The notes under the pieces were generated by a model that made no database searches, was not told where the DNA came from, and saw nothing but the letters and a program-made list of their open reading frames with translations. A DNA stretch of 64,000 nucleotides from a virus: IMG/VR virus record IMGVR_UViG_2718218482_000003, one strand, 5' to 3'. Below, piece after piece: positions 4,086-45,370 of this stretch. Positions within the stretch are counted from its first letter, which is position 1. Every line of letters starts with the position of its first letter. The position numbers were made by a program, and so were the translations under genes.

Positions 4086-5333
4086 GTGAATGAATTGGGG
4101 ATTAGAAACATATTTAAATCATTTTTAGGTGGTAGTAGTAGTGATATTCCCAATCCGGATTGTCAAACACTGCTATTAAAAGCGGAAATAGCTTACAAGA
4201 AACTATACGTTAACGCTGCTATTGATTTAATTGCACGTTCATTAATCGCCTGTGACTTTGAATCTTACAGAGATGGCAAGTTAAAACGGCATTTAAACTA
4301 CTATCAATTGAATGTAGCACCTAATAAGAATGAAAACGCTCATGAATTCTGGACAAAAGTTGTATATAACCTTGTTTACGAAAATGAAGCGTTGGTTATT
4401 CCTATTGGCGAAGAATTGTGGGTAGCTGATTCGTTTTATCGCGAAACTACGAATGGTTTAACAGAGTTTACGTATCATTCATTATCAATTAACGGTGAAA
4501 TGGTAACGAAAACTTATAAAGAAAGTGAAGTCTTGTATTTCCGGCTTTCCCAGGAGTCTATTAATCAGGTTATCGATAGCTTGTATAATTCATACGGATT
4601 ACTACTGGCAAAAGCCATGTCTGATTATAAGGGAAATGGAAAACTTAGATTTTTAATTAAAGGACGTTTCATGAATGGATTAACTGATGAGAACGGAAAA
4701 GCAGCACAAGCACTTTTTGAGGAAAAGATGAGAGATTATACAAATCCCGAAAAACTTGCATCGGTTTTATTTTTACCAGAGCAAGTTAATTTAGAAGATC
4801 AAAGTAAAGACCCACAAAAAATGGATACACGAGATATTAAGAATCTCGCAAAAGATATGTTAGACTTTGTGGCAGTTGCTTTTCACATACCACCATCATT
4901 ATTAAGTGGAATGAGCGAAGGCGGTATCTCTACTTCTGGTAACCCTACTGGTGACCTGGATCATTTCATACTGTTCTCTGTTAGACCAATCGGTGAAATG
5001 ATTGCTAACGAGTATAACAAAAAGATGTTTACTAGAGATCAATTTTTAAACAAAACTTACATCAAGTTCGATATGAAAAACTTCAAATTATTCGATTTAA
5101 CGAAGTTCGCTAATGCTGTAGACAAACTATTCGCTGTTGGTGGACTTAGTATGAACGATGTAATTGAGCGATTAGGTGGCGAATTAATCGATGAAGATTG
5201 GGCTAAGGAACGTTATGTCACTAAGAACTATGAGAGAGCAAGGATAAGCGGAACGATGGAGGGGGGTGAAAAGGATGGAAATGGAAAAGATTCAACCGAA
5301 GTTCCTAATGGTGGAGAACCAGGAGAACAGTAA
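4086..5333 (+). CDS. Portal protein (HK97 type)
   Basis: Follows terL; LNVAPNKNENAHEFW, AVAFHIPPSLL, GLSMNDVIERLG. Confidence 0.9.
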   Translation: MNELGIRNIFKSFLGGSSSDIPNPDCQTLLLKAEIAYKKLYVNAAIDLIARSLIACDFESYRDGKLKRHLNYYQLNVAPNKNENAHEFWTKVVYNLVYENEALVIPIGEELWVADSFYRETTNGLTEFTYHSLSINGEMVTKTYKESEVLYFRLSQESINQVIDSLYNSYGLLLAKAMSDYKGNGKLRFLIKGRFMNGLTDENGKAAQALFEEKMRDYTNPEKLASVLFLPEQVNLEDQSKDPQKMDTRDIKNLAKDMLDFVAVAFHIPPSLLSGMSEGGISTSGNPTGDLDHFILFSVRPIGEMIANEYNKKMFTRDQFLNKTYIKFDMKNFKLFDLTKFANAVDKLFAVGGLSMNDVIERLGGELIDEDWAKERYVTKNYERARISGTMEGGEKDGNGKDSTEVPNGGEPGEQ

Positions 5334-41074: not shown

Positions 41075-41353
41075 ATGAAAAATACAGGCATTACAAGAAA
41101 AGTGGACGAGCTAGGGTGTGTAGTAATTCCGGTAGAGCTACGCAGGACTTTAGGGATTGCTGAAGGGACAGCGCTAGACTTTCATGTTGATGAGGAAAAC
41201 GTCATTTTGAGAAAACAAGAAAAGTCATGCTTTGTAACTGGTAAAGTATCTGATTCCAACATCGAATTGTTAGGTGGCCGAATGTTTTTGAGTAAGGAAG
41301 GAGCACTTGAGTTACTTAATTCTCTTGAAAAGAGTGTGAAGGAACATGCCTAA
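41075..41353 (+). CDS. AbrB-family transition-state regulator homologue
   Basis: MKNTGITRKVDELGCVVIPVELRRTLGI. Confidence 0.9.
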   Translation: MKNTGITRKVDELGCVVIPVELRRTLGIAEGTALDFHVDEENVILRKQEKSCFVTGKVSDSNIELLGGRMFLSKEGALELLNSLEKSVKEHA

Positions 41354-43636: not shown

Positions 43637-43804
43637 GTGGAGAAATGCAATTATGTCGGATGTAAAAATGATGCAATAACTAAGGGATTTGTATTCAGTA
43701 GAGATTCACAGGGGAGAAAGCATCTTCCTACAGATGTATATGCTTGCGATAAACATAAAAAGTCTTCCAGTTTTTTTGAATATAAAACTGCACAAACAAA
43801 CTAA
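43637..43804 (+). CDS. Small Cys/His phage protein (55 aa; not in ORF track)
   Basis: GGAGGGG RBS, GTG start, MEKCNYVGC...YACDKH. Confidence 0.55.
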   Translation: MEKCNYVGCKNDAITKGFVFSRDSQGRKHLPTDVYACDKHKKSSSFFEYKTAQTN

Positions 43805-43827
43805 ACAAAATTCTTATTTTGTAAACG

Positions 43828-44962
43828 AAAAATAGGAGTGCTTGAACAGAGCACTCCATGCCGCGAACAACTATACCTATAAGAGTATATGAGTGCTGTA
43901 ACTAAATATTCTTAATTCTGATTCAAACAAAAAAGAGCGCACTGGAAAGCGCTCTTTGACCAAGATTTATATGAAAAAGTATCGGCAATTAAATCTTATG
44001 TATGTTTTCAGTTTATGTGCAAGTTTAAATAAAATCGTGATTTGAAAGTAAATAAAAAAGAGCACACATATAAGTGTGCTTTTAGACTAAAAGGTTTGAA
44101 CGTATGGACTGGAGTGCTCCATATAGTAATATATGCTTGTCTGTTGGAAAGGTGAAACGTTTTTTAGAAATCCGCTAGTTTGTAGAAAGGAGTTTGTAGT
44201 GAGCGTCTTTGATAATACGATTACGATTCGATCATATAAGCAGGAGTTACCGTATGTAGGGAAAACGTATATGCATAAGGAGCAGCAGGTAATAGGAAGG
44301 ATTCATGAGTGAGGATTTGTCAATAAAAAAAGAGGAACTCTTTTGCGCTAGAGTTCCTCAGAGAGAATAGAAAGGTTCGAAATCCATCGTTTCTAGTATG
44401 TGTAGGTTGTCATGTATTATACAGAAAAATAAAAAGGCAGCTAGCGAAAGCTAACTGCTTAGGAAATGAAAGGAGTGCAAATGAGCTTCTCGCACCTTCG
44501 AGCATTGCGGACTATCTAGCAAGCCTATGGCTGCTAGTATGAACGAACTTTTTCTTTCCTATACGTCAAAAAATAAAACGAGCACGTGTGCCAGCGTGCT
44601 CGTTTGGGAAACTTTACACCATTCTTGTTATGTTGTGTGAGTCATGAACAAGTAAGGATACAATATGATATGGATTGGAAAGAAAAGCGTGTCAAAAATA
44701 AAAAGGACACTTTCGAAAGGTGTCCTTTTATAGAGTGGCAGACACTATGAAGGAGTTTCAGGAAATAAAGTGAATGAGCAGCACCTCGAGATGAGGCAAC
44801 TACATCCCTATTGTATGCGTATGTTGTTGGAGGAGTGCCACCCAAAACTAAGAGCAGCTAGTAAAAAAACGAACTGCTCAGCCTTTGTAGAAAAGAAGGA
44901 ATAAAAATGGGTATATAAAAATTCCTCCCTCTATAGTATGAACGGGATATTGAGTTTTATTC
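43828..44962 (-). ncRNA. Array of eight candidate sporulation-sigma-driven small RNA units
   Basis: Repeated architecture: sigmaG- or sigmaK-type promoter, 50-110 nt, hairpin plus U tract (see findings). Confidence 0.6.
44199..44312 (+). CDS. Tiny hypothetical ORF inside the array (37 aa)
   Basis: AAGGAG RBS, GTG start, MSVFDNTITIRSYKQELPYVGKTYMHKEQQVIGRIHE. Confidence 0.35.
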   Translation: MSVFDNTITIRSYKQELPYVGKTYMHKEQQVIGRIHE

Positions 44963-44975
44963 AGGGAGGAGGTAA

Positions 44976-45191
44976 CTAAGCTGTTCCAAATTGGTTTTGA
45001 TCTGCCATAGTAGAATCAAAGGTGTTTGTGGCACTCACGCCATTAAAAGTATTAACGATGAAGGCAGTATTAGATGCACCAGAACCATTATAATCTTTTG
45101 TATTTTTTTTAGGGGAAACATTATAAAAATCACCTAAATTACATGAACCATTGCTGGTTTGTATGACCAAATTTCCTACGATAGAGGGCAT
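44976..45191 (-). CDS. GerPA/GerPF-family spore germination protein homologue
   Basis: MPSIVGNLVIQ...NLGDFYNVSPK...GSGASNT...TNTFDS.MADQ; AGGTG RBS; GAAC-16-CATATACTA promoter at 45253-45225. Confidence 0.85.
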   Translation of the reverse strand: MPSIVGNLVIQTSNGSCNLGDFYNVSPKKNTKDYNGSGASNTAFIVNTFNGVSATNTFDSTMADQNQFGTA

Positions 45192-45370
45192 GCTTTTCAC
45201 CTGCCTTGAAAGAAGAAGTTAGTTTAGTATATGGAGAATGAGTCTAGAGGTTCGGATTCCGTACCTGATTTCATTCACATTGGGCCGGTTTTTGAATGAA
45301 ATCAGGTATGAAAAGAATGAAAATTTCCGAAAATGGATAGGAAGGATATTGTATACGAGGAGTGACGAAT

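Follow-up and report, generated by a model that had tools for sequence, protein, structure and literature searches.

What do the short promoter-terminator units on the minus strand of a Bacillus cereus-group prophage encode, and what would their products act upon? The question is raised by positions 43.83-44.97 kb of the virus record IMGVR_UViG_2718218482_000003, a stretch of 64,000 nucleotides that we refer to as the window. In it, an array of such units lies on the minus strand downstream of a phage gerPF-like gene. A first-pass annotation, made from the DNA letters, had proposed that the RNAs of the array are C/U-rich, that their complements read like translation starts, and that they are trans-acting small RNAs (sRNAs) occluding ribosome-binding sites (RBS) rather than genes. 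We favour a narrower version of this proposal, in which a subset of the array sRNAs would block translation in the sporulating cell by pairing with the translation-initiation regions (TIRs) of mRNAs, and we put its probability at roughly 40%.

The array is best read as about seven independent minus-strand mini-genes for non-coding RNAs (ncRNAs) with sporulation-type promoters. This interpretation follows from the promoter consensus, the terminators and the lack of frame-specific conservation outside a single relic gene, and it is further supported by the only large family of units, whose RNA structure shows covariation. The array contains eight minus-strand intrinsic terminators, against 1.4 expected. 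Unit statistics were taken over 224 non-redundant units from related prophages, with 123 families serving for per-family counts. The full sigmaK consensus, AC-N16/17-CATAnnnTA, is present in 21% of these units and 0.6% of shuffles, and the sigmaG-type pattern GnATR-N17/18-CATnnTA in 7% and 0.1%, respectively; sigmaA-type promoters occur at the chance level only. From the -10 box to the terminator stem downstream of it the distance is 50-70 nt. In the window, the promoters of U2, U3, U6b and U7 are sigmaK-like and those of U1, U4 and U5 sigmaG-like, and the predicted RNAs are 49-109 nt long. Across related arrays the bodies average 40% U, 31% A, 17.5% C and 11% G, a pyrimidine content of 57%. 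When the array was compared by tblastx with ~1 Mb of related loci, the similarity ran equally through all frames and was ridden with stops, so that protein-coding units were rejected; the sole frame-specific signal came from the relic gene, which is excepted. The features of the array are as follows.

44844..44962, minus strand: U1, with the sigmaG-type promoter GAATA (44962-44958)-N17-CATACTA (44940-44934); predicted RNA ~44925-44844.
44694..44836, minus strand: U2, with the sigmaK-type promoter AC-N17-CATACAATA, -10 at 44817; predicted RNA ~44802-44694.
44568..44695, minus strand: U3, with the sigmaK-type promoter AC-N16-CATATCATA; predicted RNA ~44657-44568, without an anti-Shine-Dalgarno (anti-SD) tract.
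44425..44570, minus strand: U4, with the sigmaG-type promoter GTATA-N18-CATACTA, -10 at 44541; predicted RNA ~44526-44425.
44325..44436, minus strand: U5, with the promoter GTATA-N17-CATACTA, -10 at 44400, overlapping the TGTATAAT box; predicted RNA ~44385-44325.
44180..44312, plus strand: relic 5' end of a phage gene, with the SD sequence AAAGGAG, a GTG at 44199 and ~32 conserved codons, now a 37-codon open reading frame (ORF).
44054..44160, minus strand: U6b, a member of family 1, with the sigmaK-type promoter cAC-N17-CATATATTA; predicted RNA ~44120-44054.
43929..44060, minus strand: U7, a member of family 2, with the sigmaK-like promoter AC-N16-CATAAGATT; predicted RNA ~43986-43929.
43828..43931, minus strand: U8, with the terminator GGAGUGCU...AGCACUCC and no clear promoter; its GGAGT is half of the terminator stem.

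Across the related arrays, 41% of the unit bodies pair with the SD consensus at a free energy (dG) of -9 kcal/mol or lower, against 30% of dinucleotide shuffles (z ~4), and no such excess was found in the promoter parts or in the reverse complement of the units. Most occurrences of CTCC are found at a distance of 0-40 nt on the 5' side of the terminator. Counted per family, the most over-represented hexamer ahead of the terminator is CACTCC (7 families, 0.8 expected), and enrichment was also seen for CTTTCT (12 against 3.5), ACCTCC (4 against 0.8), CTCCTT and CCTTTC (each 5 against 1.8). In the RNA, CACUCC is typically unpaired, lies 5-20 nt ahead of the terminator, and occurs before terminators in six families other than that of U4. 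The arrangement CAT-N3-9-antiSD, the image of SD-spacer-AUG, is present in 11.2% of units against 4.1% of shuffles (z 5.2, 2.7-fold) and in 13 of the 123 families against 5; the reverse order of the elements showed no enrichment in the 224 units. Together, the enrichment of motifs and positions at the family level indicates that anti-SD-like tracts are recurrent and positioned in a minority of families and are not a universal hallmark of the units. The idea that CACTCC is a sigmaK -35 element fits U2 only and was dropped as a general explanation.

The clearest anti-SD sequences belong to two families that are absent from this window. One of the two shows UACUCCUUA in a conserved hairpin loop and the other GUUACCUCCUAUC directly before the terminator; their members lie at the following loci.

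L098:4330-4450, L106, L124 and L128: family 3b.
L083:4911, L088:4357, L090:4475 and L094:5300: family 5.

The units of the window bear out the anti-RBS reading in part: U6b gives it good support, U4 and U1 moderate support, and U2, U5 and U7 weak support or none. The family of U6b is the largest of those that are well defined, and its covariance model recovered 52 copies, 39 of them distinct, from 412 kb of phage-associated loci, and two marginal hits only from 1.2 Mb of ordinary chromosome. In the two helices of this family 93% of cells are paired and 10 of the 15 pairs show compensatory changes; none of 500 shuffles was as good, and slid controls reached 34-65%. The predicted U6b RNA begins with a 5' hairpin (GGAGCACUCC), continues with an unpaired CAU-N9-CCUUUU (the complement of 44089-44109) and ends in the terminator. 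Across the 39 distinct copies the unpaired segment retains a near-invariant CAUA, 8 nt and, in most copies, CCUUUCU. The same segment, 21 nt in length, is identical in the genomes of many species, and the part of the array around U6b was matched in 38 of 71 species genomes. The terminator, loop included, is more conserved than the remainder of the RNA. Among the most conserved positions (window 44054-44123, minus strand) are UAUG and the UAG/UAA within CAUAG, and eight of 15 members could read a six-codon leaderless ORF of the M-E-T-L-H-S-stop type, with a seven-codon variant in a ninth; 1-nt indels among the members break both this ORF and a mini-ORF on the opposite strand.

All six plus-strand strings quoted by the first-pass annotation are present exactly where it placed them, and the ORFs behind them are indeed trivially short. 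Its claim that the complements resemble translation starts holds for three of the six, those of U4, U1 and U6b, which are true TIR images with SD, spacer and ATG. The other three are incomplete or wrongly ordered: in ATGAAGGAG the ATG precedes the SD, and AGAAAGG lacks a start codon and TATATGAAAAAG an SD. Similarly, the RNAs are C/U-rich to the extent that the RNA strand of the array is 57.5% pyrimidine, but they are really U-rich and G-poor, with a G content of 9-15% in six of the eight bodies (22% in U4, 32% in U8). The same strand bias extends over the window, whose plus strand is 56% purine as a whole and 60% in the flanks.

Several units carry accessible CU-rich tracts, predicted to be mostly unpaired, just 5' of the terminator. 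Against composition-matched shuffles, pairing with the SD consensus was above chance only for U4 (p 0.018) and U1 (p 0.064). The best anti-TIR image in the window is that of U4 (dG -14.8), in the tract UUUGCACUCCUUUCA at 44481-44467, which corresponds to the quoted string at 44469-44486. In U1 the CU tract UUCCUUCUUUUCUA at 44901-44888 (quoted string at 44894-44911) pairs at dG -12.4, and the homologous first units of related prophages keep the sigmaG-type promoter together with a CUUCUUU tract before the terminator. This promoter, TGAATAAAACTCAATATCCCGTCCATACTATAGA (44934-44962, minus strand), stands directly after the gerPF-like stop codon and is conserved in related prophages (L083-L102, around 4215-4260), while the transcribed body downstream is variable. 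The CCUUUCU of U5, the complement of 44369-44375, is unpaired, has no anti-start codon, and gives p 0.26 for SD pairing; U5, like U2 and U4, is an orphan. In U2, CUCCUUCAU at 44755-44747 is unpaired and its elements are in the order opposite to that of a TIR; the predicted start of the U2 RNA is preceded by CACTCCTCC (44829-44837), and no U2 homologue was found. U3, which has homologues in several Bacillus phages and plasmids, pairs with the SD consensus at dG -4.9, worse than its shuffles. The family of U7 conserves CUUUUUCA...UUGGUCA, and U8, which has no anti-SD tract, is 88-90% identical in the phages Negev_SA and AP631.

These data allow us to hypothesise how the RNAs might act. The units combine a sporulation-type promoter consensus with a G-poor and, by prediction, mostly unstructured body and an intrinsic terminator, and in U4, U1, U5, U6b and perhaps U2 the segment ahead of the terminator, predicted to be unpaired, carries a CU-rich tract (CACUCCUUUC, UUCCUUCUUUUC or CCUUUCU). 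Such tracts resemble the 3' end of 16S rRNA, and in U6b a conserved CAU stands at a fixed distance before the tract. Most likely the RNAs would base-pair with purine-rich TIRs and thereby shut out ribosomes, in the manner of csRNAs, LhrC and sRNAs of the RoxS/FsrA type. The transcription of the units, its timing in sporulation, their action in trans and any target are what we infer from these patterns, and a link to sporulation or germination targets is purely conjectural.

Observations on the units, on the SD-like words and on targets weigh against this reading. Anti-SD pairing summed over the eight window units does not go beyond composition (p = 0.26), and an anti-SD 5-mer is present in about one third of the families and a TIR image in about 10%. 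Half of the U4 tract is predicted to be paired, with GGUGCGAG as its partner, and U4 is an orphan that has no homologue among 70 genomes. The CAU of U1 is out of register among its homologues, where it is located elsewhere, that of U7 is present only in the window copy and is not conserved in the family, and the ACUCC of U6b is sequestered in its 5' hairpin.

The enrichment of SD-like words is real but of mixed origin. On the plus strand of 43830-44965, GGAGT occurs seven times against 1.07 expected (a count reached in 0 of 1000 dinucleotide shuffles) and AGGAG seven times against 1.5; the density of GGAGT is 6.2 per kb in the array and 0.75 per kb in the whole window. The array has nine GGAG in total, three of which lie inside the relic plus-strand gene start, one in the U8 terminator stem, one in the U6b 5' hairpin and two upstream of the predicted U2 start. 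CUCC falls in predicted single-stranded RNA only at 44472 (U4) and 44752 (U2). The relic is 82.5% identical at the DNA level to the start of a 200-aa coding sequence in the B. thuringiensis plasmid-prophage pHS18-5 (L144:2506-3108), and tblastn of its 37-aa ORF against phages gave no match. Judged by the DNA alignment, the stretch 44180-44312 is a decayed gene start and not an sRNA seed, and it shows that ordinary early genes were replaced or invaded by the array. The relic, halves of hairpins and the base composition account for most of the 'seed' signal in the window, and claims about targets are therefore premature ahead of transcript and interactome data.

We evaluated candidate targets with RNAduplex in 109 TIRs from the window, 457 from phages and 1084 from a 1.2-Mb portion of one B. 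thuringiensis chromosome (23% of the genome). In none of the three sets did the best hits go beyond those of shuffled RNAs, in scans of low power for seeds of 7-10 nt. For U4, for U1 and for the family-1 consensus, median binding to real TIRs was stronger than that of the corresponding shuffled RNAs (e.g. -14.8 vs -11.9). We further looked for 21-mer complements, allowing up to 3 mismatches or a free 6-nt spacer; the family-1 consensus was run on sets of 5 and 71 genomes and the U4 seed on the set of 71. At 0-1 mismatch, the hits in the 71 genomes were copies of the sRNA genes only, and those remaining lay inside coding regions, fell at ordinary TIRs, or were no commoner than in a backward control. 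With the free spacer, real non-self hits did not rise above that control. The U4 21-mer gave 30 hits, all with 3 mismatches, compared with 3 for the control, and the recurrent hit, the sole one inspected, was not at a TIR. A match of U1 to the TIR of the small terminase (-29.8 kcal/mol) was rejected, being rich in G-U pairs and having z ~2 before multiple testing.

A further candidate is a gene just downstream of the array of another prophage (L043:7831, plus strand). Its start, ATGAGTGGA, offers a 9-nt pairing with the conserved UCCACUCAU of family 1 and is the best of the 457 phage TIRs for family-1 RNAs, yet it lies within the shuffled controls.

The first-pass annotation had set complementarity of the seeds to host or phage TIRs as its own check, and none was found beyond shuffled RNAs. 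Given the low power of the scans for such short seeds, this result neither refutes its proposal nor clears it of the objection. What stands of the claim that the units are trans-acting, RBS-occluding sRNAs and not genes are the ncRNA signals, the pre-terminator hexamers and the anti-AUG and anti-SD elements of U6b; what does not stand is its generality.

The main rival holds that the RNAs and promoters are real and that the RBS-like complements are by-products of composition, hairpin halves, promoter parts and relics, with the units acting in cis or binding protein; we consider this somewhat less likely than the favoured reading. In the cis version, 7-20 convergent sporulation-sigma promoters and their perfectly complementary RNAs would oppose plus-strand read-through from early into downstream late-regulatory genes, and so keep lytic development locked while the cell sporulates. 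No hairpin of the array makes a good plus-strand terminator, so plus-strand transcripts would cross it, and in about two thirds of 31 arrays the long flanking ORFs run in the opposing direction. The mixed origin of the SD-like words, the non-significant summed anti-SD score, the one proven relic gene start and the empty trans-target scans are also in its favour. However, the flanks are co-oriented with the array in about one third of cases and the pyrimidine bias is the same there, the RNA strand being 53-60% pyrimidine in the 31 arrays regardless of the direction of the flanking ORFs. A roadblock would need neither a terminator every 60-100 nt nor the conserved unpaired body of family 1, and it would have no use for the position-specific, family-independent enrichment of CACUCC/CUUUCU.

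In T4-type phages, PeSLs are promoter-stem-loop cassettes that flank ORFs in a plastic early region. By analogy, the units may be swappable cassettes of terminator and promoter that insulate morons and aid modular recombination, their transcripts having no function, an explanation that we regard as improbable. Like PeSLs, they are repeated modules of promoter and hairpin with a mosaic distribution: the phages and plasmids that hold relatives differ from one window unit to the next, and the homology breakpoints of several phages concentrate at unit borders, e.g. 44185-44192. In family 1 conservation is highest in the terminators, loops included, which also favours this view. Unlike PeSLs, the cassettes of the array are consecutive, with intervening ORFs of at least 90 codons absent in 30 of the 31 arrays, and at least one family has a transcript predicted to be structured and conserved. 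The covarying 5' hairpin, the conserved unpaired segment and the restriction of the anti-SD enrichment to the transcribed part likewise speak against functionless transcripts.

Micro-peptides, read from plus-strand mini-ORFs or from the leaderless ORF of family 1 (AUG GAG ACU CUC CAC UCA UAG), can draw on the high conservation of UAUG and UAG/UAA and on a shared reading of M-E/K-x-L/F/S-H/Q/Y-S/A-stop in the eight members, but they are most improbable, as 1-nt indels shift both ORFs in several members, the compensatory hairpin changes are non-synonymous, the three free positions of CATAnnnTA would make a single codon that varies fully, transcription probably starts at or after the AUG, and tblastx similarity is equal in all frames and includes stop codons.

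The favoured reading, of sRNAs that pair with TIRs, has precedents in Firmicutes. Rfam assigned no family to the units at gathering or at permissive thresholds; the best score for csRNA (RF02379), at U7, was 26.1 bits (E 0.91), below the gathering threshold of 57 bits. Streptococcal csRNAs carry anti-SD and anti-AUG sequences in an unpaired region between stem-loops (PMC3091779). The array resembles them in having several sRNA genes per genome, and the layout of two stem-loops flanking an anti-SD and a CAU is matched by U6b and family 1, loosely by U4, and not by U2, U3, U5, U7 or U8. The csRNA genes have CiaR-dependent promoters with the repeat TTTAAG-N5-TTTAAG, and this repeat is absent from either strand of 43800-45000. 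The array also differs in that its units are phage-borne, mutually unrelated rather than paralogous, and driven by sporulation-sigma promoters, with about 10% of families showing an anti-TIR image.

The LhrC1-5 sRNAs of Listeria monocytogenes are, like the units, clustered multicopy genes that each have their own promoter and terminator (PMC4132741). LhrC is a G-poor RNA with CU-rich target sites (PMC4132741), and the bodies of the array are likewise G-poor with accessible CU-rich sites. The LhrC copies, however, are homologous and have three UCCC each, in loops and single-stranded RNA, whereas the window units fall into separate similarity clusters and contain UCCC once in eight bodies (U3); LhrC is chromosomal and under LisR control, and the array is phage-borne and of sporulation type. 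Other Firmicutes sRNAs mask the SD with C-rich regions, among them RoxS/RsaE, FsrA, RNAIII and SprD (PMC4132741). Accessible C/U-rich motifs that pair with the SD and stop initiation are a principle that the array would share with them, and they differ in being single conserved chromosomal genes with defined regulons and C-runs of UCCC or CCCC, in contrast to the array motifs CACUCC, CCUUUCU and UUCCUUCU. Sporulation sRNAs offer a further comparison. In B. subtilis, SurC is sigmaK-dependent and CsfG sigmaF/G-dependent. Both are small RNAs driven by compartment-specific sigma factors, as the units are predicted to be, but they are single chromosomal genes, and neither has an Rfam match in the array. 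Our literature searches found no descriptions of these arrays.

The array is set in the genome of a temperate B. cereus-group siphophage. This prophage is Wbeta-like, and among named phages it is closest to the Wbetaviruses Negev_SA and AP631. Early plus-strand genes stop at 43804, a minus-strand block comes next, and plus-strand genes restart at ~45360. The block begins with the gene that precedes the array.

44976..45200, minus strand: small gene of the GerPA/GerPF family (Pfam PF10676, E 7e-22), first gene of the minus-strand block.

This gerPF-like gene is 73-86% identical, mostly ~80-83%, to GerPF copies, for which 80 loci were found in B. cereus-group genomes. In related prophages the equivalent block downstream of it holds up to ~20 terminators at ~120-nt spacing, and arrays of such units are widespread among B. 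cereus-group genomes. Between the upstream region of the gene and the restart of plus-strand genes, a long inverted repeat, CCTGATTTCATTCA...TGAATGAAATCAGG, spans 45238-45300 and could be an operator or a terminator. Elsewhere in the window, the phage encodes an AbrB-like protein (41075-41353, plus strand) with a MazE/AbrB N-terminal domain and an AbrB C-terminal domain, a possible handle on the transition-state and sporulation regulation of the host. The host flank holds a purine riboswitch (27587-27688, minus strand; Rfam RF00167, 83.6 bits).

CU-rich RNAs that mask the SD are well known in Firmicutes, whereas phage-borne arrays of them with sporulation-type promoters have not been described. 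A bolder extension of the favoured reading is that temperate phages of the B. cereus/anthracis group carry, beside a gerPF-like gene, up to ~20 different compartment-specific anti-TIR sRNAs, dependent on sigmaK in the mother cell and sigmaG in the forespore, which retune translation in the sporulating lysogen. We think this unlikely; if true, it would represent a phage-encoded RNA layer of sporulation control without described precedent, in which coat, germination or lytic-cycle mRNAs are example targets and the prophage tunes the properties of the spore that carries it. Even if only the U6b family truly regulates through TIRs, anthrax/cereus-group prophages would have a way to reach spore formation or germination by means of RNA, with a bearing on spore quality, the carriage of phage through dormancy and lysogenic conversion.

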